Of a DNA stretch of 42,563 bases, positions 220 to 32,757 are shown piece by piece. This DNA comes from Bdellovibrionales bacterium (GTDB lineage: Bacteria > Bdellovibrionota_C > UBA2361 > RFPC01): assembly GCA_020434495.1 (NCBI GenBank), contig JAGRAT010000001.1:1-42563 (forward strand). Direction: 5' to 3'. Numbering within the stretch: position 1 is the stretch's first letter; each line of letters starts with the position of its first letter. The translations under genes were made by a program, and so were the position numbers. The notes beneath the pieces are model-generated. The model was not told the origin of the DNA, did no database searches, and worked only from the letters and a program-made list of their open reading frames with translations.

Positions 220-262
220 TACTGCCCACCAGGTACACTTCCCACCTCAATAGGAATCCGCT

Positions 263-1156: not shown

Positions 1157-1158
1157 CG

Positions 1159-3072: not shown

Positions 3073-3109
3073 TCGTCCTCCACTTTTGACCTAGGAATGA
3101 GGGAATCTC

Positions 3110-4995: not shown

Positions 4996-5000
4996 ATTCC

Positions 5001-6374: not shown

Positions 6375-6455
6375 CCCTAGATAGCTTCTAGGCGAAGATG
6401 GTTATTTGGTTCAATATTCATAATTTGGTGATTTCATTAATCTGGGGATGCCTCT

Positions 6456-8051
6456 ATGAGTGAATCGATAGACGATGGGTCTTTCCGTGGTCGGCTCTCT
6501 TTGCGAACGAACACCATCACTCTCGTGTCTTCTCTTTTCAGCGCGCCATTTCTCTTAGGGCTCATTGCTTCAGTAATCCTTGCCGTATGGTGTGCTTGGA
6601 AGATTTACCTTATGCATGCCCTCGAGTACACCTCAGACCTGCTGGTGCATGTTCAAAAGGCACGGAGTTACCTTTATGGATACCCGCTGCTTTATGACAA
6701 TTTTTACGGGCCTCACCCGTATCACAATACTTTTACTCAATTGCTTTTTGCTCCGTTTACTCATTTGTATGGAGCTATTGGACTCTTTGTCCCTACGACT
6801 CTGATTTACGCTCTTTCGATTTACTTGATCATTTCATTAGCGAGTAGGCTGGAAGTCGAACGCAGGTGGACTCTATACGTAGTATCAATAGTCCTCATTC
6901 TTGGACCTATTGGGTTTTGGATGTTCGACGATCCTGTGTATGGATGGCACCCTGAGCCCCTCGTATTTCCGCTTGGTATTTTCTTTGCTTTGAGTCTCGT
7001 TACTCGTAAGAGGGTCGTTTCGATTCTTATGGCGATGCTAGTCGCGCTTACTCATGAAGGTGGGCCGATTCTCGCGTGGTCTATCCAGACGATGTATGAG
7101 CTGATAGTGAACCGATCGAGATTTTTTAGTGCTCGGAAAGCATATCTTATGCGCCTGGGAACCATTCTTATCTTTTGGGCACTTTTGTTTGTCATTGGGG
7201 TGATCGTTCAACGGACCTGGGATCCGGCTGGCGCAGGACGATTCGATCAGGTGATAAACCTTATCCGACAGGACTATCAGGCTGTGCTCATGGGACTTCT
7301 CGTTATCCTTGGGCGTTTGGCCTTGTTGCTCACCGCATGTTGTTTTATCGGCTTTTTTGTGGGGCTGCAATTTAAGGAGATGTTTATCACCATACTTTGT
7401 GTGCTGCCACTAGTGGCGGTTGGTATCTTTGGGAGTCTTGCATACAGCGCGGATCTTATAGGCAATTTTCACAACATATTTTGGCCATCACGATTCGCAT
7501 TCGTATGGGGAGCGGTTATCTCAGGACTGATCATTTCAGTTTCTTCTTCGACTTCTTTCTCTCCTCAGCCGCTTCTTGGGCTGCGATTGATTCTCCTCTG
7601 TGTTGTTTCATTGCCGGCGCAGTTTTATTGGCTGAAGGAGTATAGGGATTATGACCTGTTCGAACGCTTTGAACGTCCTTTCGATGAGAAGAGTATGGCA
7701 GCGAAGTTTCGCGATGATGAACTTGCGCTCGTAGAATGTCTTGGTGATAGCATCCCGAATCGAGTTCCTATTCTGGTCACAGCAGTCTTGCGGGGAGCAT
7801 TTCATAGTCATTTTCTGATTGGAGGGAATAAGGATAATCCGTACAGATCAGAGCCTCAGATATACATCTGTGAGTTTCTTGTTCGAGACCCGTACGACCG
7901 AGAGTGCCAAGAGCAGCAATTGCATTCGATCGAAGAGCTCGGATATCGAAAGCGTGAAGTCTATGGCATTCGAGTTTCGTACACACGTGATGCGAGGAAG
8001 CTCGTAAAGGCGTGTATGCCCGGTAAAAAGCAGGGAGCTGCCCACAACTGA
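6456..8051 (+). CDS. Polytopic inner-membrane protein with a C-terminal soluble domain; possible GT-C-type glycosyltransferase
   Basis: More than 10 hydrophobic helices. The loop motif WMFDDPVYGWHPEP resembles the FDD...HP motif of the 573-aa protein at 11753-13474. About 130-aa non-hydrophobic C-terminus. No family confidently recognised. Confidence 0.7.
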   Translation: MSESIDDGSFRGRLSLRTNTITLVSSLFSAPFLLGLIASVILAVWCAWKIYLMHALEYTSDLLVHVQKARSYLYGYPLLYDNFYGPHPYHNTFTQLLFAPFTHLYGAIGLFVPTTLIYALSIYLIISLASRLEVERRWTLYVVSIVLILGPIGFWMFDDPVYGWHPEPLVFPLGIFFALSLVTRKRVVSILMAMLVALTHEGGPILAWSIQTMYELIVNRSRFFSARKAYLMRLGTILIFWALLFVIGVIVQRTWDPAGAGRFDQVINLIRQDYQAVLMGLLVILGRLALLLTACCFIGFFVGLQFKEMFITILCVLPLVAVGIFGSLAYSADLIGNFHNIFWPSRFAFVWGAVISGLIISVSSSTSFSPQPLLGLRLILLCVVSLPAQFYWLKEYRDYDLFERFERPFDEKSMAAKFRDDELALVECLGDSIPNRVPILVTAVLRGAFHSHFLIGGNKDNPYRSEPQIYICEFLVRDPYDRECQEQQLHSIEELGYRKREVYGIRVSYTRDARKLVKACMPGKKQGAAHN

Positions 8052-8060
8052 GAATGCCAT

Positions 8061-8105
8061 CCCTCTTAAGAGGGCACCTTTAAGAGGGCACCTTTAAGAG
8101 GGCAT
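8061..8105. repeat. Palindrome CCCTCTTAAGAGGG followed by about 2.5 tandem copies of a 14-bp unit (CACCTTTAAGAGGG); probable bidirectional terminator region
   Basis: Read directly: ccctcttaagagggcacctttaagagggcacctttaagagggcat. It lies between convergent genes (stops at 8049-8051 and 8094-8096). The last repeat copy supplies the final codons and the TAA stop of the minus-strand gene. Confidence 0.6.
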
Positions 8106-9539
8106 TGACACTTTACCGAGCTTAATTCTGAACAATCCGATCAGTGTCATTTTTAGGAGCATGAGGCCGTGGCGGAAGCGGCTAATATTGGTGCTTCCGT
8201 ATGTCCTATCTCGGTATCGGATAGGAATGTCGATTATCCCAAGGCCGAGTACTGAGGCTGGGAAAAGGAGTTCGTAGTCGCCAAATGGATCAAAGTCTCC
8301 AAAATCGTCTCGCCACTTCATGCACCGTTCGTAATCGATTTTAGAGAGGAGCTTGGTGCCGCAGAGAGAATCCCCTAGTCGGTTGCCAAGGACGAAGCTT
8401 AGCGCTTTGGCGAAGAAGATATTCCCCATGAGGTTCAGTGGCCGCATGGCATTACCTTCCATCGGGTACACGAGACGACTTCCATTTATGAAGTCAGCAA
8501 GACCTCTTCTGTAAGCGCTGTAAAACCGCTCTAAGAGTTCCGGTGGCATCGTTAGGTCAGCATCGAGGATGGTGAGCAATTCCCCAGATGCCTCACGAAA
8601 TCCCAAACGGACAGCATCAACTTTTCCTTTTCCCGTCTGTTGGAAAGCTTTTAACTTGAAGCGATCCTTGTATTTCTCAACTACTCGCTTGATCTCTCCC
8701 CAAGTATCGTCGGAGGAATGTCCTTCGACATAGATTACCTCAATATCGGCACCATCAAATTTCGGCATTCTCTTTAGGGCATTCTCGATATTCCCTTTTT
8801 CATTCCGGGCTGGAATCACGATGGAAAGGGAAGGCTTTCGCTTCTCCTTTCTGACTGGTCGTAGAAATAGAATTGTGACGAGGCTCAGGTAGTTTAAGAG
8901 GGGAATTGCAGGAATGATTTTATTAATGACATCGCCGATCCCAAACAGCTTCCATGGGATGTAAACGGCTGGACGGCTCCTGACGAGATCGTAACCTGCG
9001 AGCTTCGCAATGTTTTCGAGATCTACAAAAGTGACAAAGGTGTCAGGTTCCGGACCTTTCCGAATTCCTAACTTGCTCGCAAGGGAGTAGAGGAAGCGGA
9101 AATAAGGGTTGTAGGCGACAATGCCGACTCGCGAGTGCCGGTTAAGCCCTTTTCGAATGCCAGCAAGGGTGTCCTCAATATTGTAGTCGTGGTTTATGTT
9201 TGCGTTTAAGAGTACGAGTGAGCGAAGGCCCTCTTTCTCGTTCATTTTCTCAAGCGCTTCGACCTGAGACGTCTCAAATTTCTTCTCACAGTCGAGAGCT
9301 GCCAGGAGTGCGCCGGTGTCTTCTTCTCGTCTCTTCCACTGGACTGTCACATCCATGTATCGGCTTACGTTGGAGACCTCAGAGGCGATGATGCTGTTTA
9401 CATACTGACGCCAAGCGGGGAGTCCCTTAGGTGCTGCCCCGACAACATGGAGGTAGGGCACTGCGGAGTCATTTTCACGCTTTCCTTCACTGTCTAGTTC
9501 CTGCCCTTTGAATAGCTCTTTTGCAGCTGAGTCACTCAT
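8094..9539 (-). CDS. Fusion protein: degenerate methyltransferase-like N-domain + membrane linker + family 2 glycosyltransferase
   Basis: The C-terminal half has LSIVIPARNEKGNI, VIYVEGHSSDDT, LTILDADLT (DxD) and SLCGTKLL. The N-terminal half (LVLLNANINHDYNIEDTLAGIRKGL.RHSRVGIVAYNPYFRFLYSLASKLGIRKG) resembles the post-motif-I part of proteins annotated as bifunctional class I methyltransferase/GT2. I see no GxGxG SAM motif. Confidence 0.8.
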   Translation of the reverse strand: MSDSAAKELFKGQELDSEGKRENDSAVPYLHVVGAAPKGLPAWRQYVNSIIASEVSNVSRYMDVTVQWKRREEDTGALLAALDCEKKFETSQVEALEKMNEKEGLRSLVLLNANINHDYNIEDTLAGIRKGLNRHSRVGIVAYNPYFRFLYSLASKLGIRKGPEPDTFVTFVDLENIAKLAGYDLVRSRPAVYIPWKLFGIGDVINKIIPAIPLLNYLSLVTILFLRPVRKEKRKPSLSIVIPARNEKGNIENALKRMPKFDGADIEVIYVEGHSSDDTWGEIKRVVEKYKDRFKLKAFQQTGKGKVDAVRLGFREASGELLTILDADLTMPPELLERFYSAYRRGLADFINGSRLVYPMEGNAMRPLNLMGNIFFAKALSFVLGNRLGDSLCGTKLLSKIDYERCMKWRDDFGDFDPFGDYELLFPASVLGLGIIDIPIRYRDRTYGSTNISRFRHGLMLLKMTLIGLFRIKLGKVSMPS

Positions 9540-9717
9540 CTTGCTTGTACGCTCATGAATATTAGATTGATAAAGTTATGCTCTGCTAAGAGCCTAATGC
9601 CGCAGTATTTTTCAGTCAACTCTACCGCAAGAGGTATGCTTGCAAGCTGCTAAGAGCGTGGAAAAGCGTCGAGTTTTTCTACAGGTCGATTCGCTGACTC
9701 GAGAGGACGCGATCTCC

Positions 9718-10653
9718 CTAATCCAGCGAGCCATTCTTCAGCGCCCACTCGTAGGTTCTTTTCAGACCTTGCTCTAGCGAGTGGTTGGGTTTCCACCCGA
9801 GTGCCTTTATCCTGGAAACATCGAGAACTTTTCGAGGGGTACCGTCTGGTTTGGAAGGATCAGTCTTGATTTCCCCCTCAAATCCTACTGTCTTTTTCAT
9901 GAGCTCAGCGAGATCCAATATGCTGCAATCGATACCAGTTCCAACATTGATAGTTGTTGGTTCTTCGTATTTGTCCATCAGCACGATAATTGCTTCGGCC
10001 AAATCCTCGATAAAAAGAAACTCGCGCCTTGGGCTGCCTGTTCCCCAAATGGTGACATCTGGTTTGCCGCTGAGTTTCGCTTCATGAAATCTGCGCATCA
10101 TGCCGGGTATGACATGAGAGTGATCGGGGTGGAAGTTGTCCCCTGGGCCATAGAGATTTGTAGGCATGACCGATGTAAATCGTTTCCCGTACTGTTCCCA
10201 ATATTTCTCGCAAAGCTTTAGGCCGGCAATTTTCGCTATGGCATATCCTTCGTTTGTTGGCTCGAGGGGGCCAGTCATGAGGTAGTCTTCTTTTATCGGT
10301 TGAGGAGCCATTTTCGGGTAAATGCAGGAGCTTCCAAGTAGCAGGAGCTTTTTCACCCCATGCTCAGCTGCTGCATGAATGACATTTGTCTCGATCACGA
10401 GATTCTCATAGAGAAAATCCGCTTGGTTGGAGAGGTTGTAGAGGATGCCACCTACTTTAGCCGCGGCGACAATACAGTAGTCAATTTGTTGCTCTTCAAA
10501 GAATCTGTGAACAGCGGCTTGATTCAAGAGATTGAGTTCGGCTCGGGATCTCCCTATGACATCCGAGTAGCCCTGTTCCTTCAAAGCAGCCATCACCGCT
10601 GACCCTACGAGCCCTCCGTGGCCAGCAACGTAGATCCGACTGTCTTTCTCCAT
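9718..10653 (-). CDS. fcl: GDP-L-fucose synthase (GDP-4-keto-6-deoxy-D-mannose 3,5-epimerase/4-reductase)
   Basis: IYVAGHGGLVGSA, AAAKVGGI, NLVIETNVIHAA, LGSSCIYPK, EPTNEGYAIAKIAG and PTNLYGPGDNF are collinear with Fcl/WcaG. Confidence 0.9.
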   Translation of the reverse strand: MEKDSRIYVAGHGGLVGSAVMAALKEQGYSDVIGRSRAELNLLNQAAVHRFFEEQQIDYCIVAAAKVGGILYNLSNQADFLYENLVIETNVIHAAAEHGVKKLLLLGSSCIYPKMAPQPIKEDYLMTGPLEPTNEGYAIAKIAGLKLCEKYWEQYGKRFTSVMPTNLYGPGDNFHPDHSHVIPGMMRRFHEAKLSGKPDVTIWGTGSPRREFLFIEDLAEAIIVLMDKYEEPTTINVGTGIDCSILDLAELMKKTVGFEGEIKTDPSKPDGTPRKVLDVSRIKALGWKPNHSLEQGLKRTYEWALKNGSLD

Positions 10654-10801
10654 ATCCCCTACCTCTACAATTCGGTGAACCCATAGTGTTTCTAGTTGCG
10701 CGGGAAATTACAACCCTTTGGAGGCACAACTGTATCGAGGGGAGTTCTTCGTACTGACGCACCACGTGGCTGGAGGTGAAATCTTTGAGAGGGCTTGCTC
10801 C

Positions 10802-11647
10802 TTAAGAGCTCTTCTTTCGTATTACGACACGAAATGTAGTTTTCTCCCTCTCGGGACCTCCGAAATATGAACGCCAGGAGCACTGGTTATACGCCAACTC
10901 GACACCGTCGTAGGAATGGAATACTGCGGTTTCCGGTTCGAGATTGTATCGCTCGGCCAGTGCATCGATGCTTCGCATGATCCCTGCCGGTGTCGGGATG
11001 TGGTAGTCAGATAGACTTGAAATTTTGTACTTTAACTCCTCTCCCAGTCGATACGGATTCAAAGCAGAGCAGAGCAATGCGATGAGCACATCTCGTATTC
11101 GACGGGGAAGAAAATGGATGTACTTGATGTCAGTGTGTTGTTCAGTTGGGAAATACCTGTTTGGGAGCTCGAGAAAGATGATTCCTCCCGGCTTTACGAC
11201 TCGGTAAAGTTCGGCGAGGTATAGCCCAACGTTTTTTGTATGTTCAATGACGTGCATACTAAAAACGATATCAAAAGAGTTGCTTGGAAGCGGAAGGATA
11301 TTTCCGTCGTATGTTTGAATTGACACGAGCTCTTCAAAAGGAGTTGCCTGAAATCGAGCCTTTGCGAGGCGAGCTAAAGATTCATCAACTTCAATTCCTG
11401 TAGCAGCGGCGGCGCCCCATTCCATGAATGTGTAAAGATCCCCAGCTGATCCACATCCGGAAGAAAAGACATGGCTGCCCGATATCGGGTGGAATTTTGA
11501 TAACTGGTCAATCCACGGACCAAAGCGTGATATGTCGAGATGATTCTGAACGACATTCTCGAAATTGAAATCATCTCTGTAGTCAGCGAGTTCCTCTTCT
11601 ACAAGAGAGCGGAAGTTGTTCATCTGAATTTCTGCTAATGCTGGCAT
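10802..11647 (-). CDS. Class I SAM-dependent methyltransferase
   Basis: Motif I-like VFSSGCGSAGD, then GIEVDESL, FDIVFSMHVIEH and VVKPGGIIFLELPN. Confidence 0.8.
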   Translation of the reverse strand: MPALAEIQMNNFRSLVEEELADYRDDFNFENVVQNHLDISRFGPWIDQLSKFHPISGSHVFSSGCGSAGDLYTFMEWGAAAATGIEVDESLARLAKARFQATPFEELVSIQTYDGNILPLPSNSFDIVFSMHVIEHTKNVGLYLAELYRVVKPGGIIFLELPNRYFPTEQHTDIKYIHFLPRRIRDVLIALLCSALNPYRLGEELKYKISSLSDYHIPTPAGIMRSIDALAERYNLEPETAVFHSYDGVELAYNQCSWRSYFGGPEREKTTFRVVIRKKSS

Positions 11648-11752: not shown

Positions 11753-13474
11753 CTACTGGAGAGAAGTCTCCGTCCCGTCATTGGGGAGTTGAAAAAGAAG
11801 TACAGCGCCATGCCAGGTCCGGATTGGTTTGTTGTTGAAGGCTCCATGAAAGGTGAAAGGCCAGCTTTTCCTGAGGATAATGTGATTGGCTCTAGGACCG
11901 AGTACCCCTTCTGCTTGTTTTATGAAACTCGCGGTGTCTATTTCGCTGTAGTGGTGGTTGAAAATCCAGCGGATCGGGTAATGTTCCAGAAGTTCTGCTG
12001 TACTGCCTGTGCGAATAGCCCGCGCATATTGAGCCGAGTTGACAACACCGTCCAGGTTGATAACACGGTTCTTTGAAAAGTACCCAACAATCCCAGCGTC
12101 CCAAGAGGCGATGATGTCGTTTGGATCGATCTGTTTGTTTATCCAAAGTGCCGCTTCGTAATTCACCTTTCGGATGGAGTAGCTGTTTGAGTTTAGCACC
12201 GAAGTCCATGAAGTGGTGATTAGCCACAATACTGGAACAGCGAAAATTGTGGAAATAAGGAGTGTTTGTCTACGTCTTTGATTGGCGTTCTGGAATTGCT
12301 GATTAAGTAACAAGTTTGCAAAGTCCATCGTAAGGGCGAAATAGGTGAGTACGAGGCAGGTAAAAACGGGGACGAAATGCCAGAGGCGAGGAAAACTCTG
12401 AAGAAAGAGATAGTAGCCGAAAATTGTACCTGCAAAGAGGTATAGCCATCCAAAAGTGTTTGCCATGCGTTGTAGAGTTGCGAAGCGCACCTGCTGAGTC
12501 GCTCGATACCATCCGAAGGCGAAGGCCCCAAAACACCCAGCAAAAAGCACTATACGCCTCGGGGTTCTAGGAATCTGCTTGACCACACCGCTCACTTGCA
12601 CCGGAGTATCAAAGAGGAGCCAGTTTGTGACGAGAAATAGAGCAATAACAAGAACTGGGAGTATGAGAATCTCCAATAGCTGGCGTACTGTTCCCGCTTT
12701 GGTTGTCCACCACCAAATGAGATAACAGGGAATTAAGAGGCCTGCATCTGTGCGACTAAGAAAAAGCAACGCAAAACAGGCTCCGAGTGCGAATCTCCAA
12801 GATGGGGACTGTGTATACTGCCCGCAAATGACATTCCCGGTCTCGTCGTCGAAAGCTGATCGCTCTCCGCTGATTCTACGGGCAGTATTTGTCGTCCCTC
12901 CGGGGGACCTCCCGGCAACTTCAGTTGCCTTTGGTATAGATTGAAGCTCGAATGATTTCACGCTGTGTATCCAGAGTGCGATGCTGAGAAAAAACAGCAC
13001 GAGAGTGGACTCAAGCCCGTTTACCGCAAAGCGCATCGTCATAGGGCTCATTGTTATTCCAAGCAGAGTCAGGAGGGGGATAACCCCCGGCCCTCTTCGT
13101 TCCGGCCGCAGTGCCGCAAGTGCTTTCCCGACGATAATGATCGATAAAGCAGCGAGTGCTACTTGGAAGAGCAGCAGCACTCTTACAGCTTCCATGTCGC
13201 TGAATGACAGAAGATAGGGAATAGCGCACAGAATAAGCCAAAGGGGATGGAAGCCGTTAGTCTGGCTCAAACCATCAAAGGTAAACCCCAGCCCCTTCAC
13301 CCAGTTGCGTGCGATGGTGAAGTAGTAAAAGGAGTCATCGAAGGTTGCGATCAATGGATAGTCTTGCCAATTGATTATGGCCACTACCCAGAATGCCAAA
13401 GTTCCCAAGGTAATGGTGATAATGGGTAAGTGAAAGTGATCGCCGGAGCTGGTTGGTGTTGAATTGTGTTGCAT
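11753..13474 (-). CDS. Polytopic membrane protein, GT-C/PMT_2-like putative glycosyltransferase
   Basis: Many hydrophobic helices. First-loop motif ATFDDSFYYFTIARNWVKGLGFTFDG..TNGFHPLW. Soluble C-terminal domain (ASWDAGIVGYFSKNRVINLDGVVN). Confidence 0.7.
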   Translation of the reverse strand: MQHNSTPTSSGDHFHLPIITITLGTLAFWVVAIINWQDYPLIATFDDSFYYFTIARNWVKGLGFTFDGLSQTNGFHPLWLILCAIPYLLSFSDMEAVRVLLLFQVALAALSIIIVGKALAALRPERRGPGVIPLLTLLGITMSPMTMRFAVNGLESTLVLFFLSIALWIHSVKSFELQSIPKATEVAGRSPGGTTNTARRISGERSAFDDETGNVICGQYTQSPSWRFALGACFALLFLSRTDAGLLIPCYLIWWWTTKAGTVRQLLEILILPVLVIALFLVTNWLLFDTPVQVSGVVKQIPRTPRRIVLFAGCFGAFAFGWYRATQQVRFATLQRMANTFGWLYLFAGTIFGYYLFLQSFPRLWHFVPVFTCLVLTYFALTMDFANLLLNQQFQNANQRRRQTLLISTIFAVPVLWLITTSWTSVLNSNSYSIRKVNYEAALWINKQIDPNDIIASWDAGIVGYFSKNRVINLDGVVNSAQYARAIRTGSTAELLEHYPIRWIFNHHYSEIDTASFIKQAEGVLGPRANHIILRKSWPFTFHGAFNNKPIRTWHGAVLLFQLPNDGTETSLQ

Positions 13475-13672: not shown

Positions 13673-16669
13673 TTAATAGCCGCCGAGTGAATTGAGGCGA
13701 GATTTTATAAAGCGTTTAAGCGTTACAAACTTTTTGCCTCTAGCTTTTAGTAAACTTTTCACTCTTTTAGTCGTTGTCTGAACGAGACTTTGAAACTCAG
13801 AAGCGGTCGTGGCCTCAATCGTTTCTGAAAATGAGTCAGCAGAGGTTCTAAACAGAAGGAGAGCCTGCTGCGTCTCTTTTCGGAGCACTCGCTGACGCTT
13901 TCGAGCTTTGCGTTTTTCTCTTGGTGGAAGTGGTCTAACGGCCTGTACCAAGGCTTGGAGCTCGCTCAGGGATTTTTTAAACACTTCAGTATCGCTTCCG
14001 CTCGGAGGATTCGCAGTTGGGGAAGGACCAGGCTCCTGAGTTGGGATCTCGGATGGAGTTGGATTCGGAGTGCTGGACGGAGTGGAAGACGGAGTCGGTG
14101 ATGATGTCGGCGTTGCGCCATCCTCTGGAACTACGACGGTGAAAGAGAGAACTGTATCAGAGTCGACTGCAGGAATCTGAGAGATAGGAGCAAGAGAGAA
14201 TCTTCTATACGCATCCATCTCGCTATACCCTAGGCCAGCACGGTTGTGTTTCCTCCAATAGGTGCCCCATTCGATATTTGCTTGATCATAAAGTCCAGGA
14301 TAAAGAGCAAACGGGCTTATTGGAGGCCCGTATGGAAGGTAAAACACCTCATCATCAAAAGAGATCAGCTTTAGCGGAGATACCGAGAAAGTTCGAGCCT
14401 CACAGAGAAACCCACCCATGCCGTCTGGTTGAAGAACCACCCAAGCAGAGCTTCGTGAGCCGGCACCAGGACCAGAAAAGTCTTCGGCAACAACAACACC
14501 ATTGTTGACCATTCTCAGAACTTGGCTATACGTCGTGATGCCGCGAGCAACACACTTGTCGGTTAGAAAGGTGATACCTTTGCGGAGCTGTTCCAACAAG
14601 AATGCAGCTGAGGGTAGGTCTAAGGCATTTTGCATTTCAGTGCGCGAAGCGCGATCTGTATATAACAGAAAATTTCTTACCGTAGCTGGAGTCGGTAGCG
14701 TCCCTCTGAGAATATTTTCCATTTGAGGTTGGAGATAAAGGATTAATATCTGCTCAAGGGAGTCGCGCATGTCACCCTCATGGACACGCAGCAATTCTAC
14801 GGCTATGGAGACTATTGGGATCTCTCCAGAAGGAACGACGGTAGCTCCAAACTTATCAAACGAAGCAACAATAATTTCCAAGAGCTTCTTTAGTCTTCCG
14901 CCGTGAGTGCCCGAGGCAAAGTGAAAAACATCTTGCTTGTTCATTGGGGTATCACGATGAGCAAGCTCAAAAGTTTTTAGTTGCAATTGCCGGTGAGTTT
15001 GACGACCTGGATCCATATGTGAAGGCACCGATGGTGGCACTTCGCATCCGCCTGAAAGAGCGCCGTTGTCCGCTGCTGCGTGTCGCTGTTCTGCGCAGTA
15101 CGATGTTGGTCGAACACCTGTTTTTAGGTACTGTGGTACAGGGGGATTGACGGTGAGTCCATCAATGGTGTCGGAGCCGGCAACTTCATCAACCCAACCT
15201 TGGTTAAGCGAGAAGTAGGCAAGGCGCTCAACATCTTCTGGACTGCGAGAAGGAGCAGAGTGGCAACCAGCTTCTCCGTAGTGAGGTATTGCTTTCTCTA
15301 GAACTTGTAAATACTCATCCCCGTCTTCATGTAATCCCGCGAGAAACCTACGCCACATCCCATCAACAAAGCTGGAGGGACTTTTTTGTCGAATGGTGAT
15401 TGCGAAGTATTTTCCACTGAATTTAACGAGAAGAAAGACTTTCCCAAATCCAGGCACGTAATACTCGGTAATCGTCTCAGTCACACCATTTCTGATCACA
15501 TCGAGAGGACGCGATTCGAGTGGGTACCAGACATCTTGATACTTGTAATTAACGCCGTCGGTTTCGACATAAAAGGTGAATGCTGATGCGGTAGGACCTG
15601 CAGTGCCGGTGGTCGAATTGCCGGCCGTGTTTTGTAAGCCGATAAATCCTGGGTTTGTTCCGTAGACACCGAGCACGAAGGGCTTATAGCCATTAGCGCC
15701 ATCAGAAACCCACCCTCTCGATACATTCATCTTTTGCCCTGCGCCAAAATTTGTGTCAAACGAGGACATTTGATGCGGCTCTCCCGTCGAGAAGCATTTC
15801 AGTTTGCTTGGATCGCTAATGTCTCGATAAGTTCCTGCTGCACCGTTAGAAGCGCCAATCGGTGTATCGAAGTGTTCTTGAAATTGAACCAATGGAGATT
15901 GCTCGCTCAGCGAGACGGTTTCTAGAAGCGGTGGAAGGGGATGTCCCAATTCGTTGTGGACAAGATCATCTCCAAATGCAGCGGCCAAAGCAGAGACGGT
16001 TCCCAAATCGTGAAATTGAGCGTACAGAGCGTAGGCGATCAAAAAGTCACGTGGCGTGCGCTCATAAAAATATTGAACAATATTGGTTGGCTGAAGCTCA
16101 GGATTCGCCGCATAAAAAGCAGCTTCAGTTTGTCTCGCTTGAAATTGAGCTCCTTTCACCCACTGTGTAAACAACCGGAGAACTTGTGGATCCATCGATT
16201 CAAGTTCAGAGTCGACCCAAGCATCGAGCCCCCACCAGCGAGCATAGGTCGAGATATCTTCAAGTTTTCTATCACCAGAGACTTCTTCTTCAACCGTTCC
16301 ATCGGAATCTACCTTGCGCGGTATTGAAGGAATGGCAAAAAAGACCTTCGAATAGCGCGGTGAGTTCCCGTTGATGATCTCTTCTAGGATTGCCTGATTC
16401 AAGGTGCTACCGTGGTCGGTTGCAGTTAAGCTATTCGCTAGCATCGTTAAAGGCTGTCCGTTGTATTGAGCGACTCCGAGCGCATACGCAAGATTAAACA
16501 GACTTTCTTCGGTCGTGCTTCCTCCGTTTGCTGTTTCAGCTACGGTAATTTCTCCGTATTTGCTGATTTCGACCCGCACTTCGGCTGGAGTAGCTAGACA
16601 AGTGAAGGGAAGGAAAGCCAGAGCCGGTAAGATAAGCCGGCAAACTCTATAGTTCATCGGTCTGTGCAT
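13673..16669 (-). CDS. Large secreted protein of unknown function with a C-terminal Pro/Thr/Ser linker and a basic helical tail
   Basis: The likely start is ATG 16669 (MHRPMNYRVCRLILPALAFLPFTCLA, signal-peptide-like) or 16657; the ORF-track start at 16813 adds 48 unlikely residues. Low-complexity TPTSSPTPSSTPSSTPNPTPSEIPTQEPGPSPTANPPSG is followed by a K/R-rich tail. Confidence 0.75.
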   Translation of the reverse strand: MHRPMNYRVCRLILPALAFLPFTCLATPAEVRVEISKYGEITVAETANGGSTTEESLFNLAYALGVAQYNGQPLTMLANSLTATDHGSTLNQAILEEIINGNSPRYSKVFFAIPSIPRKVDSDGTVEEEVSGDRKLEDISTYARWWGLDAWVDSELESMDPQVLRLFTQWVKGAQFQARQTEAAFYAANPELQPTNIVQYFYERTPRDFLIAYALYAQFHDLGTVSALAAAFGDDLVHNELGHPLPPLLETVSLSEQSPLVQFQEHFDTPIGASNGAAGTYRDISDPSKLKCFSTGEPHQMSSFDTNFGAGQKMNVSRGWVSDGANGYKPFVLGVYGTNPGFIGLQNTAGNSTTGTAGPTASAFTFYVETDGVNYKYQDVWYPLESRPLDVIRNGVTETITEYYVPGFGKVFLLVKFSGKYFAITIRQKSPSSFVDGMWRRFLAGLHEDGDEYLQVLEKAIPHYGEAGCHSAPSRSPEDVERLAYFSLNQGWVDEVAGSDTIDGLTVNPPVPQYLKTGVRPTSYCAEQRHAAADNGALSGGCEVPPSVPSHMDPGRQTHRQLQLKTFELAHRDTPMNKQDVFHFASGTHGGRLKKLLEIIVASFDKFGATVVPSGEIPIVSIAVELLRVHEGDMRDSLEQILILYLQPQMENILRGTLPTPATVRNFLLYTDRASRTEMQNALDLPSAAFLLEQLRKGITFLTDKCVARGITTYSQVLRMVNNGVVVAEDFSGPGAGSRSSAWVVLQPDGMGGFLCEARTFSVSPLKLISFDDEVFYLPYGPPISPFALYPGLYDQANIEWGTYWRKHNRAGLGYSEMDAYRRFSLAPISQIPAVDSDTVLSFTVVVPEDGATPTSSPTPSSTPSSTPNPTPSEIPTQEPGPSPTANPPSGSDTEVFKKSLSELQALVQAVRPLPPREKRKARKRQRVLRKETQQALLLFRTSADSFSETIEATTASEFQSLVQTTTKRVKSLLKARGKKFVTLKRFIKSRLNSLGGY

Positions 16670-17116
16670 CCTCAGATGTAACTCCGAACGGCGAATCAGG
16701 ACAGCAAACGCAAGTTGGCATGTTGACCAGAAAATTAAACTGCTTGAACTTCCCCACGAAGCTGATAACGACAGTAAGGGTCGGTACTTGCCAAATACAA
16801 CTAAAGATGCCACCGCTGATCGACAGGGTTTATGGCCAGCACACCACTTTCAATATCGTTCGCTGCAATAATTCTGCCAAGTCCTTGTGGGGGGCGAAGG
16901 CGTGAAAGTCCACGATATTAGGTGAGGGTAACTGCTATGTTCCTCAGTGATTCTATTAGTTTTGTGGTTAGACCTGATTGTCTGTGTGCGAAGGATGCCG
17001 GGAATTGCGCAGGTCAATAAAGATTAAGTAAGGGAAGTTGAAAGTTTGATAGAAAAGACCACGTTCCGGGCTGTGAAGTTGACAATGAGAATCCAATTGC
17101 CAAAGAGCAGGATTGT

Positions 17117-21210: not shown

Positions 21211-21870
21211 TTAGAGGGTATCTATTTGCCGCCGGAATTGATGGTGACCAAGGTGGGCATCTGTTCGATCAGAGATTGGAATACCGAAACTCCCTTCGCA
21301 GTGGTCCTGAACAATACACCGCTGGCACTTACGAGGATGAGGTTTCAAGGAGGCCTTTTGACCATCCTCCGCGATAAGTCGCATTTGGTGTAGCTGCTCA
21401 GAAAGCCAGTCCTGGCGCTCCGACGTGTTGTATATTTTTACCTTTCGCGAATTTTTTCCAATGATGAGGTATCCGTATGGAGGGCGTTTGCCCTCAAACT
21501 CTTCTACAAGCCTCATATACACTAGGAGCTGAGCAATATGCCGGTCTCGGACCTTGTTCCCATGAGCCTTTCTTTCCACTGGGATGAAATATCCACTTTC
21601 TAACAGCACGGCATCGGGTCTTCCGGAGATACCTTGAATCTCTGAGATATAGGTTTTTCCTTTGTGGCGCTTCGATCCATCAACATTGATAGCTAGTGCT
21701 GTGGATGCTGAGAGCCCACTTTTCTTTGATTTTGATTTAATAGCTCGCAGTACATCATCAACAACGATAAGAGCTGAAACGATCAGAACAGTGTAGAGAA
21801 TAAGATCCGAGTCCAGCTGCACTAGCTGATGAAGCACACGTATTATGCTCTCCCGAAAATGCTCTCTCAC
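21211..21870 (-). CDS. Cas4/DUF83-type PD-(D/E)XK nuclease, C-terminal (catalytic) part, with an N-terminal hydrophobic helix
   Basis: GTG 21870 with GAGG 8 nt upstream. Hydrophobic LILYTVLIVSALIVV, then GRPDAV...IPVERK (D...ExK), AQLLVY (QxxxY) and KCQRCIVQDHC (C-X2-C-X5-C). Confidence 0.72.
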   Translation of the reverse strand: MREHFRESIIRVLHQLVQLDSDLILYTVLIVSALIVVDDVLRAIKSKSKKSGLSASTALAINVDGSKRHKGKTYISEIQGISGRPDAVLLESGYFIPVERKAHGNKVRDRHIAQLLVYMRLVEEFEGKRPPYGYLIIGKNSRKVKIYNTSERQDWLSEQLHQMRLIAEDGQKASLKPHPRKCQRCIVQDHCEGSFGIPISDRTDAHLGHHQFRRQIDTL

Positions 21871-22133
21871 GTGTTGTGCCTCAGAATTAGAAGGAGAACG
21901 GTCGCAGCACTTATGAGCGCGGCTACAAGACGTAGCATTCGCCCAAGAGTAAACTCATACTCAAGGTCTTCTGCCCACTGTTTGTGGATCTCCTCTCCTT
22001 GCTCCATCTCTGGTCCCTCAAGGATCGGTTCACGCGACATGCGTTTTAGGTACCAGGCATTCGGGCACACGGTGTATTCTGCTACTTCACTAGCTGGAAA
22101 TATGTGTTTTCCCGAACTTGTCTTATGCGGCAT
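21867..22133 (-). CDS. Cas4/DUF83-type nuclease, N-terminal part (first Fe-S cysteine), ending in a hydrophobic helix
   Basis: ATG 22133 has GGAGG 7 nt upstream; the ORF track extends to 22205. ASEVAEYTVCPNAWYLKR and GEEIHKQW match the Cas4 N-terminal segment. C-terminal LRLVAALISAATVLLLIL. The stop overlaps the downstream start as GTGA. Confidence 0.62.
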   Translation of the reverse strand: MPHKTSSGKHIFPASEVAEYTVCPNAWYLKRMSREPILEGPEMEQGEEIHKQWAEDLEYEFTLGRMLRLVAALISAATVLLLILRHNT

Positions 22134-22280
22134 TGTACTTCCTCCGGAGCCGGCAAGAGTGAATTGCCCCACGCTGATAAGGTCGTGATGAGGCTCCTTC
22201 TCCATATCCGGAGTGGAAGCGAAAATGCTTCTTCCTGAATTTCACCAGGGATTTGGGGCAAGGCTAGTAATATCAGATGC

Positions 22281-22814
22281 TTACTTGTCGTTGGGGTCGA
22301 ATGAGCGAACGATCTTGTCGATCATCGACTCAAAGCTATCAAACCATTTCTTGTTTAAATTAACCGATTTAGAGGCGTGATCGATGGAGAGAGGGTTATC
22401 AGAGCTTTCATTGGCGAGTTCTCGGAGGTCGTCACTTGTCTGAAATCCCAGCCAAGAATCCTCTGAAAGGGGGATGTGCGCCGTCTCTAACACGTACTGC
22501 GCTTCCGGTGCCTGGTCATTGGTAATTCGCCAGAAGGCGTAACGAGCGCATGCAGAGAGAAAGTGGCATCGAAGGATAAAGGCGAGATCTTCCCCAGAGT
22601 TGTCAATATTCACGGCGATCAGGTAATCCGACTCGCAATCTAGTAGAAAGTGACTCTCTAGAGTTTCAATCCATACCCGCTTTGCTCTATGGGCAGAAAG
22701 TTCGTCCGCGTATCGAGCCTGGATTGCAATAGCCTCCACATCAAAGATGATCTCTGACAGTTGAGGTGATGAGCTGTCACTAAATGAATATTTACGGGTG
22801 GTTAGCATAGTCAC
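22281..22814 (-). CDS. Hypothetical acidic protein (177 aa)
   Basis: Long ORF, D/E-rich, with no recognisable motif. It lies about 150 nt upstream of, and is co-oriented with, the split nuclease genes. Confidence 0.55.
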   Translation of the reverse strand: MTMLTTRKYSFSDSSSPQLSEIIFDVEAIAIQARYADELSAHRAKRVWIETLESHFLLDCESDYLIAVNIDNSGEDLAFILRCHFLSACARYAFWRITNDQAPEAQYVLETAHIPLSEDSWLGFQTSDDLRELANESSDNPLSIDHASKSVNLNKKWFDSFESMIDKIVRSFDPNDK

Positions 22815-23472: not shown

Positions 23473-24276
23473 TTGAGAGAAGGAACTATGAGAGGAAAGA
23501 ACTATAGAGGCGGCGGAGGTGGTAATCGTCGACGAGGTAATGATGGTGGCGACAGCCGTGGTGGCCGCGGAGGTCGCGGTGGTCGAGGCGGCGGCGGTGG
23601 CGGCCGTGGAGGTCGTGGCGGCGGCGGTGGTGGCGGCGGCCGTGGTCGTGGTCGCGGACGAGGTCCAAGAAACTCAGGTACTGCAGAGAGTGGTAACAAA
23701 CGCGAGCGGATTCAGGTAGAGAGCGGCTCACTCGTTCTTATTGATCAGTTTATGTTGGCAAATCCTCAAGTGCTCGAAAAGTTGCAAGAGCTTCTTGATG
23801 AAGGACCAGAAACGAAGGATGCACTCGTTGCTGAGTACGGGGGCGCGGTTGTTTCTCTTCCTCCTGATATCTACCGAATTGAACGCGATCCTTATGCTTC
23901 AACGATTGTGATTCATCCTGATGGGGATAAGACGGATGCGAGTTCTCTAAAAGACGAACTTGATCAGCCGATGGGTCGAGTATTTATTGATACTCGATGT
24001 CTCGCCATGATCGATCGTGAATTGCTTGATGATATTAGCTTGCTCGAGAAATATCAGCAGCTATGGGTGAGTGGTAAGGACAAGGCGTGCCGGGATCTCT
24101 TGAGAGATAACGGAGGGGCCGTTCGTTACGGATTCCAACGTTTCGGCGATGAGCTCTCTGTTCATGCAGACAAGGATCTAAACGTTATCGCACTCTGGCC
24201 TGATGTTATTGAAGGTGGCTTGGACGATCCAAAAGAAGTAGAGGCGGAAGCTGCTGCTGCTGAGGGGGGTGCCTAG
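23473..24276 (+). CDS. Protein with an N-terminal Arg/Gly-rich (RGG-box-like) region and a ~190-aa C-terminal domain of unknown function
   Basis: Start is TTG 23473 (AAGGAG just upstream) or ATG 23488. Residues ~12-66 are almost only G/R (RGGRGGRGGRGGGGGGRGGRGG...RGRGRGRG). The rest is ordinary globular-looking sequence. Confidence 0.75.
   Translation: MREGTMRGKNYRGGGGGNRRRGNDGGDSRGGRGGRGGRGGGGGGRGGRGGGGGGGGRGRGRGRGPRNSGTAESGNKRERIQVESGSLVLIDQFMLANPQVLEKLQELLDEGPETKDALVAEYGGAVVSLPPDIYRIERDPYASTIVIHPDGDKTDASSLKDELDQPMGRVFIDTRCLAMIDRELLDDISLLEKYQQLWVSGKDKACRDLLRDNGGAVRYGFQRFGDELSVHADKDLNVIALWPDVIEGGLDDPKEVEAEAAAAEGGA
23506..23670 (+). repeat. (GGN/CGN)n low-complexity coding tract encoding the RGG region
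   Basis: A run of GGT/GGC/CGT/CGC/GGA/CGA codons, visibly far more GC-rich than its flanks. It generates spurious ORFs on both strands (23486-23731, 23502-23699, 23519-23719). Confidence 0.8.
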
Positions 24277-31394: not shown

Positions 31395-31692
31395 GTTTAT
31401 CGGGGGTATTCGAGCTGGTTATGCACAGGTGTGTAATCCTCTGGGGGCTGTCCGAAACGAATGATGGTTCGGTTGGGAGCTAAGGGTCTTTGCTCGGTCT
31501 TGCGTTCGGCAAAACCAGACGTCGAGCAACTGCAGCAACATCAATCGCATTCTTGTTTTACGTTGCGGTCAGAAAGGTTTGGCGTAGCTCATTGTTTTCA
31601 TAATTTGGAGCGGTTAGGTGAAAAGATGTTATGGCACAACGGTTCGCTTCCCGGGCATAACGAGCTAGGGACGGGGATTGGGTATTGCTCCT

Positions 31693-32757
31693 ATGATGAA
31701 TTCAATTCGCATCAGCCCTTTACCGGTGAGCGGTCAGATTCTTGATGAGACAGAGGCGGAGTTTCGACCGCTAACGCTTGACGAGTCTTCAAGTTTTGGC
31801 CTCGCAAGTGACTCGACCGAGTTTGTGAAAAGGGCATTCGCCCGTTACGGATTAGGGTCAACCGAGTACGTGCGCTTAACAACAAAAGAAGACTCCCCTC
31901 GAGTCTTTCAGGGCCACTTTCAAGGGAGCATGGATGCTGAAGGTTCGATAACCTCTTTTGATCGGTCACTTCCTGAAGGTGTCAGCTCAATTCGAGAGCT
32001 CCCATTTCACGAGCAGCTACCTATCGATCGAGTCCAGGCTCTTGTAACTTTCCATGGATTTGGTTGTGAGCTTAGGAGTGCTTGGATAACACTTTTTGAT
32101 TCAACCTATGATGAGTTAGGAGGGAGCGGTAAGGAGCGATTACGAGCTTGTGCTGGAAGTGTGGCAGAAGTTAAAGCGCATGTTAGTGATGACCCTAGCG
32201 AATCAATGACCCTTCGAGGACGAATTGTTCCAGAGAAGAACGGCAACATTCAATTGGTAGATCCTCTTCGTCGTGTATCTGTCGCGCCTACTGTTAGAGA
32301 CTGCCACATAGTGACCTCGATCGAATTGCTACAACTCCCCACATTTTGGGATAGAGCAATAGCTGCAGGATTTCTTGGTAGAGGCAACGGAGAAGAGTTG
32401 CTACCGCATCTCTTTGAAAGAGGAGCTGCGGTAACGATTACCTCAAAGCCAATAGATGTTGCCTCTTCTTGGCGGGTAGAACCTCCTCAGGTGTATGATG
32501 TTAGCGGTAAGTTCCTTGAAGTTGCTCTCGATAATCTCGGTGAGAGATCCGTATTACTTAAAACAGAGCGCGGTATATGTGCATTTCCTGTTCGTCAGAT
32601 TGAGAGCATGCACACCGAGGGCGTTACCCGGGAAGGGTATGTGGCAATCCTTGAAGCTGCAAAGCTCTTGCAGAGTGATCGGGACTCCGAGGTAAGAAGT
32701 CGCCGTCTGACGTTTGAGTCGGTAGTGGTCCAGAGCATAACTGGACTCTCGGACTAG
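31693..32757 (+). CDS. Hypothetical protein (~354 aa)
   Basis: Long ORF; the first ATG is at 31693 (MMNSIRISPLP), while the ORF track begins at an alternative start at 31678. No recognisable motif. Confidence 0.6.
   Translation: MMNSIRISPLPVSGQILDETEAEFRPLTLDESSSFGLASDSTEFVKRAFARYGLGSTEYVRLTTKEDSPRVFQGHFQGSMDAEGSITSFDRSLPEGVSSIRELPFHEQLPIDRVQALVTFHGFGCELRSAWITLFDSTYDELGGSGKERLRACAGSVAEVKAHVSDDPSESMTLRGRIVPEKNGNIQLVDPLRRVSVAPTVRDCHIVTSIELLQLPTFWDRAIAAGFLGRGNGEELLPHLFERGAAVTITSKPIDVASSWRVEPPQVYDVSGKFLEVALDNLGERSVLLKTERGICAFPVRQIESMHTEGVTREGYVAILEAAKLLQSDRDSEVRSRRLTFESVVVQSITGLSD

Follow-up and report, generated by a model that had tools for sequence, protein, structure and literature searches.

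A probable two-subunit, membrane-inserted solo-Cas4 nuclease encoded by overlapping genes in Bdellovibrionota

Background

Cas4-family nucleases that are encoded outside CRISPR-cas loci and other characterised contexts have been termed solo-Cas4 (Hudaiberdiev et al. 2017, PMC5704561), and about 20% of bacterial genomes and 90% of those of archaea encode a Cas4 or solo-Cas4 (PMC5704561). A solo form has been described in Methanosarcina mazei under the name Solo-Cas4 (PMC12501428). In the described forms the protein is one soluble chain of about 170-220 aa, and together Cas4 and solo-Cas4 count among the least understood of the widespread nucleases. The two studies cited contain no mention of Bdellovibrionota or of a split or transmembrane Cas4, and in the literature on Cas4, on PDDEXK nucleases and on membrane-bound nucleases we found no membrane-inserted or split Cas4 described.

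Here we report the analysis of a nuclease locus in a 42.5-kb stretch of DNA, referred to below as the window. An earlier note made from the letters of this DNA had been unable to match the locus to any described system, in agreement with what we found in the literature. We propose, with a probability of roughly 0.75, that the locus encodes a two-subunit solo (non-CRISPR) Cas4 nuclease into which a membrane hairpin is inserted, its gene being split within the hairpin loop.

The window nuclease resembles solo-Cas4 in its D, ExK and QxxxY residues and its one plus three cysteines, in having no adjacent cas genes, and in its vertical inheritance in a 'regular gene' context; its location outside CRISPR, mobile-element and characterised contexts is the one by which solo-Cas4 is defined. 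It differs from the described forms in an insertion of approximately 90 residues that contains two helices, and in being encoded by two genes in half of its lineage. Its best profile and fold matches are CRISPR Cas4 proteins (8D3L and 8D3Q of type I-C, from Cas4-Cas1-Cas2, 7MI4 of G. sulfurreducens, 4IC1 and 4R5Q), from which it is set apart by having neither Cas1/Cas2 nor an array beside it, by the predicted membrane hairpin, and by a fold carried on two polypeptides. In the nuclease domains of AddB, Dna2 and AdnAB, one N-terminal and three C-terminal cysteines likewise bracket a RecB-type fold, but there the cluster staples parts of one chain in a large helicase-nuclease, whereas here it would staple two small membrane proteins. 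The 'iron staple' concept for Fe-S nuclease domains is said to come from Yeeles et al. in 2009.

SNIPE, a constitutively membrane-localised nuclease that tells entering DNA from the chromosome by its location and not by its sequence, offers a functional analogy. No homology to SNIPE emerged from the profile searches, run against libraries without a SNIPE model, and PADLOC matched the window proteins to Cas4 and DruK models only. As a defence gene, SNIPE is mobile and was tested in E. coli, whereas the window family occupies a conserved housekeeping neighbourhood.

Results

Two overlapping genes and their signals

Two ORFs on the minus strand overlap by four nucleotides: a small ORF of 88 aa (22133..21867, with its ATG at 22133 and its TGA stop at 21869-21867) and a large ORF of 219 aa (21870..21211, with a GTG start at 21870). 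The genes and their signals are as follows.

21867..22133, minus strand: small-subunit gene, 88 aa plus stop (orthologous small ORFs, profile matches)
21211..21870, minus strand: large-subunit gene, 219 aa plus stop (Pfam PF01930, TIGR00372, PADLOC; starts of orthologues align)
21867..21870, minus strand: GTGA start/stop overlap of the small and large genes (read from sequence)
22141..22145, minus strand: GGAGG ribosome-binding site, 7 nt upstream of ATG 22133 (read from sequence)
21879..21882, minus strand: GAGG ribosome-binding site, 8 nt upstream of GTG 21870 and within the small gene (read from sequence)

The two ORFs, their starts, their ribosome-binding sites and the GTGA overlap had all been listed in the earlier note and were recovered unchanged, as was every Cas4 residue that it had distributed over the two polypeptides. 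The overlap suggests translational coupling of the two ORFs, and a -4 overlap (ATGA or GTGA) is also found in five other split loci. From its N-terminus, the small subunit consists of the N-terminal Cas4 segment (Cys23, His50), a C-terminal predicted transmembrane helix and a 4-aa tail; the large subunit consists of an acidic N-tail of approximately 22 aa, a predicted transmembrane helix, a K/R-rich linker and the Cas4 catalytic core. Where the large ORF has GTG 21870, its orthologues open with M[RK]E, and by comparison the start in the database gene call P0001 (208 aa) is 11 codons too late. A longer small ORF from ATG 22205 was considered and found to be unsupported, all 34 of 34 orthologues having M[AP][RK] as their first residues where ATG 22133 lies. 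Annotation can easily overlook the 88-aa subunit and labels the large one just as 'Dna2/Cas4 domain-containing protein'. A scan for promoters and terminators around the locus yielded background-level signals only.

Cas4 profile matches and key residues

Profile searches returned Cas4 / PD-(D/E)XK matches for both ORFs and for their fusion, by which we mean the small and large ORFs joined in silico, and thus bore out the family assignment made in the earlier note. Against Pfam Cas_Cas4 (PF01930), the family of COG1468, the large ORF scored 32.1 bits and the fusion 40.5 bits (cut-off 22.7). With the PADLOC Cas4 model PDLC01250, the large ORF matched profile positions 50-168 of 168 (E = 1.5e-17) and the small ORF positions 2-48 (E = 2.9e-5); judged from these matches, the two ORFs jointly cover the complete Cas4 profile, far beyond what would be expected by chance. 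The NCBIfam model TIGR00372 gave 56.0 bits for the large ORF alone, 19.2 for the small ORF alone and 71.6 for the artificial fusion, the equivalog cut-off being 65; the small ORF was placed at profile positions 3-43 and the large ORF at 63-179. As an equivalog model, TIGR00372 represents CRISPR-associated Cas4. Among all window proteins, the only PADLOC matches were to Cas4 and DruK models.

The small ORF contains ASEVAEYTVCPNAWYLKR with Cys23, GEEIHKQW with His50, and the hydrophobic C-terminus MLRLVAALISAATVLLLIL. The large ORF contains the hydrophobic segment LILYTVLIVSALIVV, followed by RPD (D86), VERK (E99, K101), QLLVY (Q114, Y118) and C182-X2-C185-X5-C191. The residues predicted to form the active site and the cluster are encoded as follows.

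22065..22067, minus strand: codon of Cys23, predicted first 4Fe-4S ligand (invariant; aligns with the N-terminal Cys of 8D3L)
21984..21986, minus strand: codon of His50, predicted metal ligand of the nuclease site (invariant; aligns with the His of 'GQHLHKK' in 8D3L Cas4)
21568..21615, minus strand: catalytic D86 ... E99-x-K101 (RPD ... VERK) of the large subunit (invariant columns)
21298..21327, minus strand: C182-X2-C185-X5-C191, three predicted C-terminal Fe-S ligands (columns C270, C273 and C279 invariant)

Cys23 is invariant in 35 of 35 split homologues and in all single-chain homologues examined. Columns D174, E187 and K189, which correspond to D86, E99 and K101, are invariant in both alignments A1 and A2, and the D, ExK and QxxxY columns (D86, E99-R-K101, Q114-LLV-Y118) show no variation in 49 homologues. 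All four Cas4-type cysteines are present and invariant, spread over two chains (C23 on the small, C182, C185 and C191 on the large). The catalytic segment aligns with 'PVEYK' of 8D3L and 'D...PVEIK' of Pcal_0546, and the CX2CX5C motif with CNNCSLQSIC of 8D3L Cas4.

When the full-length profile was compared with PDB sequences, it matched type I-C Cas4 8D3L (8.7e-5) in an alignment that pairs the Cys, the His, ExK and CX2CX5C. A profile built from 20 small-subunit sequences found no match among PDB sequences even at E = 10, and the equivalence of the Cys and the His therefore rests on the full-length 8D3L alignment together with the PADLOC and NCBIfam matches. The Cys-to-His spacing in the small subunit is 27, versus about 31 in SSO0001 from Cys31 to His62. 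His62 of SSO0001 is a Mn ligand (PMC12501428).

AF2 modelling of the joined halves as a single-chain fusion, not as a heterodimer, gave a pLDDT of 80.3, with values above 90 in the core. The top Foldseek matches of this model in the PDB were Cas4 8D3Q_J (4e-7), 8D3L, Dna2 5EAN, 7MI4 (Cas4-Cas1), SSO0001 4IC1 and Pcal_0546 4R5Q, with AdnAB also among the matches; the modelled fold is thus that of Cas4 and RecB nucleases.

A predicted membrane hairpin

At one point of the Cas4 fold, between profile positions 48 and 50, the family carries an insertion of approximately 90 residues with two strongly hydrophobic helices, which canonical Cas4 does not have. In the window the two helices lie on different subunits, and the hydrophobicity that the earlier note had ascribed to each half is reflected in their Kyte-Doolittle values.

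21882..21938, minus strand: predicted transmembrane helix 1, small-subunit residues 66-84, MLRLVAALISAATVLLLIL (Kyte-Doolittle 2.48)
21760..21804, minus strand: predicted transmembrane helix 2, large-subunit residues 23-37, LILYTVLIVSALIVV (Kyte-Doolittle 2.39)

Hydropathy was calculated on the Kyte-Doolittle scale with a 19-residue window, and topology was read from hydropathy and charge bias. In every member of the family both hydrophobic segments comprise 17-20 uncharged residues with values of 1.6-2.8, and the equivalent of helix 1 reaches 1.6-2.5 in all 29 single-chain homologues; the sequence of the helices drifts across the family while their hydrophobicity is kept. In the AF2 model they sit inside continuous helices of 48 residues (41-88) and 31 residues (109-139, fusion numbering). 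On family average, the net charge is +2.8 over the 15 residues that follow helix 2 and -0.8 in the loop, and the split large subunits have acidic N-tails; the charges flanking the hairpin obey the positive-inside rule. Small ORFs end 0-8 residues beyond the helix, as in tail-anchored proteins.

Single-chain homologues are ordered as Cys segment, TM1, loop, TM2 and core, and because these relatives carry the same hairpin, it is to be regarded as an insertion into the fold. At the same site, more distant relatives have a longer loop or a number of hydrophobic stretches, estimated by eye at about 4 and about 8. The objection that the hydrophobic segments might be buried core helices, raised in the earlier note against its own reading, fails: they fall within the insertion, their sequence drifts while hydrophobicity is conserved, AF2 places them in long helices, and the flanking charges are of the positive-inside kind.

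Conservation of the split

The survey covered 66 related genomes, almost all of them uncultured Bdellovibrionota-type MAGs (67 loci with the window). The earlier note had left room for a frameshift in a gene that is intact elsewhere. The Cas4 domain proved to be divided over two polypeptides in 34 of the 66 genomes as well as in the window, always in the hairpin loop, while in the other 32 a single ORF with the same hairpin is found and the single-chain forms make up a distinct sister clade. The 34 split loci stem from species-level genomes and include one on a 1.25-Mb contig (L053).

Across the split loci the junction stop codon is TAA in 11, TAG in 12 and TGA in 12, and the second ORF stands in frame 0 relative to the first in 8 loci, in +1 in 7 and in +2 in 20. 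Most junction spacings lie between -19 and +26 nt and the widest is +152, two loci being gapped by 52 and 152 nt. The 34 orthologous small ORFs are 83-94 aa long with C23, P24, W27, G46, H50 and W53 invariant, a pattern that points to clear protein-level constraint; in a representative library of 1.8 billion proteins, small subunits appear as separately predicted proteins of 89 aa.

Every one of the window's closest relatives (45-67% identity) has the short form, with an M[RK]E start at the same aligned residue. The single-ORF homologues, of 271-311 aa and covering approximately 90% of the joined sequence, form one clade with 35-41% identity to the window; they reveal the hairpin as an insertion and do not make the window gene a broken one. 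In an outgroup-rooted tree with 200 bootstraps, the single-chain Bdellovibrionota clade received 84%, the deeper nodes were without resolution, and the split forms were never monophyletic. An evolutionary order of fission followed by re-fusion is only suggested by this tree.

Genomic context

TRF, a direct-repeat search, Rfam and profile searches detected no CRISPR array, Rfam element or cas gene anywhere in the 42.5-kb window, consistent with the description of the nuclease in the earlier note as an orphan with neither CRISPR nor cas1/cas2. The repeat searches returned an RGG coding repeat (23506-23658), a 14-nt tandem repeat (8066-8104) and nothing else. Window neighbours include genes for polysaccharide synthesis, IMPase, an HMGL-like gene, an M12B peptidase and Fpg, and those in related loci include fmt, def, purC and similar housekeeping genes. 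The recurrent neighbour families, sampled up to about 6 kb from each of the 66 related loci, include no cas genes. Judged by these surroundings, the locus is most likely neither a CRISPR adaptation module nor a mobile defence island. The protein tree is cleanly structured, and the nuclease is inherited vertically in a housekeeping context.

Two further genes recur beside the nuclease.

22281..22814, minus strand: conserved upstream gene, 177 aa (directly upstream in 58 of 67 loci)
23473..24276, plus strand: divergent gene, 267 aa, RGG-rich (present in 51 of 67 loci)

The upstream gene, of approximately 175 aa across the family, is common to the split and single-chain clades, and its product is a probable partner or operon mate of the nuclease. 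Its family comprises 766 'hypothetical' proteins and has no Pfam domain. The 177-aa protein of the window matched nothing in Pfam, NCBIfam, PADLOC or the PDB sequences, and its AF2 model, with a core pLDDT above 95, retrieved no PDB fold in Foldseek (nothing better than E = 0.011). The spacer between this gene and the small ORF measures 0-325 nt in most loci and 1,089 nt in one (L002), and on inspection the spacers contain no shared element. Synteny of this kind could partly stem from shared ancestry instead of function. The 267-aa protein is rich in RGG/RG at its N-terminus and highly conserved in its C-terminal domain, and has no match in Pfam or NCBIfam; its association with the nuclease is syntenic only.

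Discussion

We consider the locus to encode a PD-(D/E)XK enzyme with a predicted 4Fe-4S cluster, in which a predicted membrane hairpin separates the N-terminal Cys/His helix from the catalytic core. In the lineage of the window the gene is cut within the loop of the hairpin, which would face outward, and forms two genes that are probably coupled in translation. The 88-aa small subunit would be tail-anchored and would provide the first cluster cysteine and the invariant histidine predicted to bind the catalytic metal; the 219-aa large subunit would expose its acidic N-tail on the outside, cross the membrane with one helix and hold its core (D, ExK, QxxxY, CX2CX5C) in the cytoplasm. The chains would have to pair in the inner membrane, where their interface on the cytoplasmic face would complete the Fe-S cluster and probably also the metal site. 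Both this membrane topology and the inter-chain Fe-S cluster are what we infer from hydropathy, charge bias and the positions of the invariant residues.

The existence of single-ORF homologues of 271-311 aa, to which approximately 90% of the joined sequence can be aligned, and the placement of the window ORFs in different frames with a 4-nt overlap would both be expected if a 1-nt indel, introduced by sequencing, assembly or mutation, had recently broken a single gene of approximately 300 aa. We give almost no credence to such an artefact or pseudogene: 34 independent species-level genomes are split alike, with three stop codons, three frame relations and widely varying spacings, the closest relatives all share the short form and its M[RK]E start, each window ORF has its own Shine-Dalgarno sequence, the small ORF shows protein-level constraint, and the forms with a single ORF make up another clade. 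Stop read-through or programmed frameshifting at the junction could likewise restore a single chain, and the compact overlap in the window, as well as eight split loci in which the two ORFs share a frame and are separated by one stop codon and 0-12 nt, would suit such recoding. It is nevertheless extremely unlikely, as the junctions have in common no frame, stop codon, spacing or conserved slippery motif, two of them are gapped by 52 and 152 nt, the large subunits open with a conserved Met/Val-Arg/Lys-Glu, preceded in the window by a Shine-Dalgarno sequence, and the Rfam search found no element.

Two other alternatives concern what the enzyme does and where it resides. That it is a conventional adaptation Cas4, acting in trans with a distant cas1-cas2 pair and bearing its helices as an incidental decoration of the lineage, would fit with CRISPR-associated Cas4 being the best match in sequence and fold (TIGR00372, PADLOC, 8D3L/8D3Q, 7MI4) and with the visible portion of the genome amounting to 42.5 kb. 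We regard it as very unlikely, given that no cas gene or array is seen in the window, nor cas genes among the neighbour families sampled at 66 loci, that the conserved partner is the protein of approximately 175 aa and not Cas1 or Cas2, and that a membrane tether is hard to square with a Cas4-Cas1-Cas2 integrase working on a chromosomal array. Alternatively, the enzyme might be cytosolic, the hydrophobic helices forming a soluble or coiled-coil interface that joins or oligomerises the chains; a split domain does need a strong association element, and Cas4 SSO0001 is an oligomeric toroid according to the title of PDB 4IC1. This, too, is unlikely: segments of 17-20 uncharged residues stay at Kyte-Doolittle values of 1.6-2.8 in every member despite sequence drift, their charges follow the positive-inside rule, the small ORF stops 0-8 residues after the helix, and the approximately 4 and 8 hydrophobic stretches of distant relatives make sense only as membrane domains.

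For the membrane-inserted two-subunit nuclease, our best guess as to its role is that the tether confines a nuclease dependent on DNA ends to DNA at the inner membrane, for example ends that are entering the cell or are membrane-associated, sparing the bulk of the chromosome, and it probably works together with the upstream protein of approximately 175 aa. A more far-reaching and rather doubtful possibility is that of a phylum-wide, vertically inherited 'entry-gate' nuclease of the inner membrane, whose active site and cluster would form only when the subunits pair and which, with the partner of approximately 175 aa and possibly the RGG protein, would degrade or process DNA ends that arise from phage injection, conjugation or uptake on the cytoplasmic side of the membrane, telling self from non-self by location. 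As regards its surroundings, a vertically inherited housekeeping context is atypical of anti-phage systems, and nothing ties the locus to DNA uptake.

Conclusions

The conservation of the split implies a real two-subunit gene pair and not a sequencing error. The family constitutes a natural experiment in protein fission, in which a one-domain enzyme has been cut inside a predicted membrane hairpin so that one predicted Fe-S ligand and a putative metal-binding histidine reside on an 88-residue tail-anchored peptide. The occurrence of split and single-chain states in sister lineages should be useful for learning how Fe-S 'staples' and membrane helices permit domains to be split and re-fused. The family also provides solo-Cas4 with a predicted inner-membrane address and a conserved partner gene, which makes its function approachable by experiment. 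If the role is DNA surveillance at the membrane, SNIPE-like discrimination by location would be extended to another fold and phylum. Should the entry-gate reading be true, this would be the first Cas4 nuclease with a catalytic centre assembled across two chains, and its cluster-dependent assembly might place nuclease activity under redox or iron control.

A Cas4 domain encoded by two overlapping genes

The candidate nuclease is encoded on the minus strand by a small and a large ORF, the stop codon of the former overlapping the start codon of the latter in GTGA:

ATG 22133 to TGA 21869-21867, minus strand: ORF-N, small subunit, 88 aa; GGAGG 7 nt upstream
GTG 21870 to 21211, minus strand: ORF-C, large subunit, 219 aa; GAGG 8 nt upstream

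Reading of the two sequences recovered every Cas4 motif quoted in the earlier note. ORF-N carries Cys23 within ASEVAEYTVCPNAWYLKR and His50 within GEEIHKQW, and closes with a hydrophobic stretch, MLRLVAALISAATVLLLIL, and the tail RHNT. In ORF-C, LILYTVLIVSALIVV lies close to the N-terminus, ahead of RPD (D86), VERK (E99, K101), QLLVY and C182-X2-C185-X5-C191, in this order. The database gene call puts the start of the large subunit at GTG 21837 on the minus strand (P0001, 208 aa); orthologues and the GAGG site indicate that GTG 21870, yielding 219 aa, is the start instead.

Profile searches bore out the proposal that a Cas4 nuclease is spread over two chains, as both ORFs matched complementary positions of the same models. 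ORF-C scored 32.1 bits against Pfam Cas_Cas4 (cut-off 22.7). In the 168-position PADLOC Cas4 model PDLC01250, ORF-N residues 13-60 matched positions 2-48 (2.9e-5) and ORF-C residues 64-192 matched positions 50-168 (1.5e-17); NCBIfam TIGR00372 was tiled likewise, at positions 3-43 and 63-179, respectively. One complete Cas4 domain is therefore covered by the pair, and the artificial fusion scored 71.6 bits against TIGR00372, whose equivalog cut-off is 65. The end of ORF-N and the start of ORF-C constitute about 90 extra residues at a single point of this domain. The family profile matched type I-C Cas4 (PDB 8D3L), bringing into register the N-terminal Cys, the His of 'G..lH', ExK and CX2CX5C, and the alignment with Pcal_0546 spans D...ExK...C. 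An AF2 model of the halves joined as one chain, built from an alignment of 49 sequences, had a mean pLDDT of 80.3 (core >90), and its best PDB fold matches were Cas4 (8D3Q/8D3L), Dna2, Cas4-Cas1 (7MI4), MGME1, SSO0001 and Pcal_0546.

Reality and evolution of the split

Two length classes emerged when the joined sequence was used as a protein query. Proteins of ~271-311 aa (36-41% identity) cover ~90% of the fusion and carry, between the Cys segment and the core, two hydrophobic helices joined by a ~20-aa loop. Those of ~195-230 aa (45-67% identity) cover only the ORF-C part, and their N-terminus, M[RK]E, aligns exactly with GTG 21870, in the inter-helix loop. The 88-aa small ORF was absent among the 120 matches listed; an exhaustive search of representative proteins contained two independently called 89-aa small subunits (P0357 and P0376).

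We then surveyed one genome per GTDB species, sorting loci as single or split by HMMs. Among 66 loci, from MAGs assigned nearly all to Bdellovibrionota, Oligoflexia or 'Deltaproteobacteria', 32 have a single ORF and 34 are split, the small ORF lying immediately upstream of the large one in all 34. Including that of the window, the 35 split junctions differ in stop codon (11 TAA, 12 TAG, 12 TGA), in frame relation (8 frame 0, 7 +1, 20 +2) and in spacing (33 within -19 to +26 nt, the other two at 52 and 152 nt), with an ATGA or GTGA overlap at six, the window's among them. Junctions this varied rule out an assembly error or recent frameshift as the origin of the split; with 34 relatives likewise divided, the reservation that the pair might be a frameshifted pseudogene or an assembly artefact falls away. 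Programmed recoding is very unlikely on the same evidence of variable stop codon, frame and spacing. All 35 small ORFs are 83-94 aa long, begin with M[AP][RK], end 0-8 residues past the hydrophobic helix and retain C23, P24, W27, G46, H50 and W53 without exception. The two-gene split is real and old.

In a tree of the soluble domain, the single-chain Bdellovibrionota forms fall into one clade and the remainder are split forms. With distant single-chain relatives as the root, the single-chain clade was monophyletic in 84% of 200 bootstraps and the split forms in none, which points to few changes of state. The nesting of this clade (loci L007-L065) among split lineages suggests either re-fusion of a split gene or several independent fissions; possibly, fission was followed by later re-fusion.

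Proposed composite catalytic centre and predicted membrane hairpin

In SSO0001, Mn is bound by His62, Asp99, Glu113 and the Ile114 carbonyl (PMC12501428). By alignment, the counterpart of that N-terminal His is the small subunit's invariant His50, and D86, E99 and K101 are all on the large subunit. With Cys23 and His50 on one chain and the remaining residues on the other, we infer that the chains would have to pair before the Fe-S cluster (1 + 3 Cys) is complete, and probably the metal site too.

The two window helices have 19-residue Kyte-Doolittle scores of 2.48 and 2.39, and all 29 single-chain homologues score 1.6-2.8; hydrophobicity is conserved although the sequence varies. In the AF2 model the hydrophobic segments lie inside continuous helices of 48 (41-88) and 31 (109-139) residues, too long for burial in a domain of ~200 residues. 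The mean net charge is +2.8 over the 15 residues after helix 2 and -0.8 in the loop, and the large subunits of split loci have N-tails of net acidic charge, a pattern that, judged from sequence, is consistent with a loop in the periplasm and a nuclease in the cytoplasm, where an Fe-S DNA enzyme would need to be. Helix length, retained hydrophobicity and charge bias together speak against buried core helices, and the insertion has the look of a hairpin of two membrane helices.

Genomic context and conserved neighbours

The orphan status claimed in the earlier note holds: repeat, Rfam and gene-family searches turned up neither a CRISPR array nor an Rfam element nor any cas gene within the 42.5-kb window. 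Its genes include a polysaccharide-synthesis cluster, IMPase, an HMGL-like gene, an M12B peptidase, an AMIN/DnaJ protein, Fpg, a GntR regulator, a subtilase and a histidine kinase, and related loci are adjoined by fmt, def, purC and similar genes. The nuclease gene is chromosomal and inherited vertically, and it fits the definition of a solo-Cas4 in PMC5704561.

Positions 1-11647 hold the sugar-nucleotide/polysaccharide biosynthesis cluster (epimerases/dehydratases, DegT aminotransferase, GT2 glycosyltransferases, nucleotidyl transferase, methyltransferase), an ordinary chromosomal context. A perfect 14-nt tandem repeat, TTAAGAGGGCACCT x2.8, occupies 8066-8104, in the short interval that separates two convergent genes, 6456..8051 (+) and 8094..9539 (-). 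Five large ORFs are lineage-specific proteins:

13673-16813, minus strand: 1046 aa, no Pfam or NCBIfam match
11753-13474, minus strand: 573 aa, no Pfam or NCBIfam match
6456-8051, plus strand: 531 aa, no match in Pfam scan
36719-37912, minus strand: 397 aa, no match in Pfam scan
31678-32757, plus strand: 359 aa, no Pfam or NCBIfam match

Two genes accompany the nuclease in both split and single-chain clades:

22281..22814, minus strand: 177 aa (~175 aa in the family), directly upstream of the nuclease on the same strand; 58/67 loci
23473..24276, plus strand: divergent RGG gene, 267 aa (~233-267 aa across loci); 51/67 loci

The 177-aa protein, one of a family of 766 'hypothetical' proteins lacking a Pfam domain, bears the invariant motif C.F..AC.RYAFWR.T..Q.PE.Q...ET.H.P, and its C-terminal helix is basic or amphipathic. 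It had no match in Pfam, NCBIfam, PADLOC or PDB, and its AF2 model (core pLDDT >95) matched no PDB fold; a functional partnership with the nuclease is probable. The 267-aa protein, which matched no known family, combines a long N-terminal RGG/RG-rich tract with an extremely conserved C-terminal domain (SGNQRERI..ESG.LVLIDQFMLANPQ ... IDTRCLAM.DRELLDD ... RDLLRDNGGAVRYGF); a DNA repeat at 23506-23658 lies inside its gene. RGG tracts are unusual in bacteria, and this one suggests nucleic-acid binding.

Proposed mechanism and role

We propose that the two chains make up an inner-membrane-anchored, heterodimeric Cas4-type nuclease. Translational coupling would help joint production of both chains; the small subunit would insert as a tail-anchored peptide and the large one with its N-terminus outside, their hairpin helices pairing within the bilayer, and at the cytoplasmic face the Fe-S cluster would staple the small-subunit N-terminal helix onto the large-subunit core.

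The suspicion that such an enzyme matches no described system was upheld by the literature: neither the Cas4 phylogenomics paper (PMC5704561), the PD-(D/E)XK superfamily survey, the solo-Cas4 biochemical paper (PMC12501428) nor keyword searches yielded a description of a split or membrane-inserted Cas4. In databases these proteins are named 'Dna2/Cas4 domain-containing protein' or 'CRISPR-associated protein Cas4'. Distant relatives vary at the same insertion site, with a longer loop in P0244, P0264 and P0272 and several hydrophobic stretches in P0328, P0330 and P0338 (about 4 and about 8, by eye); some ~170-aa forms (P0310, P0312, P0315) open with a hydrophobic helix and have no N-terminal Cys segment. 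The generic cas4 model alone recognises any of these relatives, for which there is no dedicated family model, and membrane-embedded Cas4-like nucleases may form a wider, undescribed group.

The proposed tethered Cas4 resembles the SNIPE membrane nuclease in logic, not in ancestry. Its housekeeping surroundings favour a core function specific to the lineage over a mobile defence module, and our preferred guess is that the tether would restrict a DNA nuclease that acts on ends to the DNA found at the membrane, either incoming DNA or membrane-associated ends.
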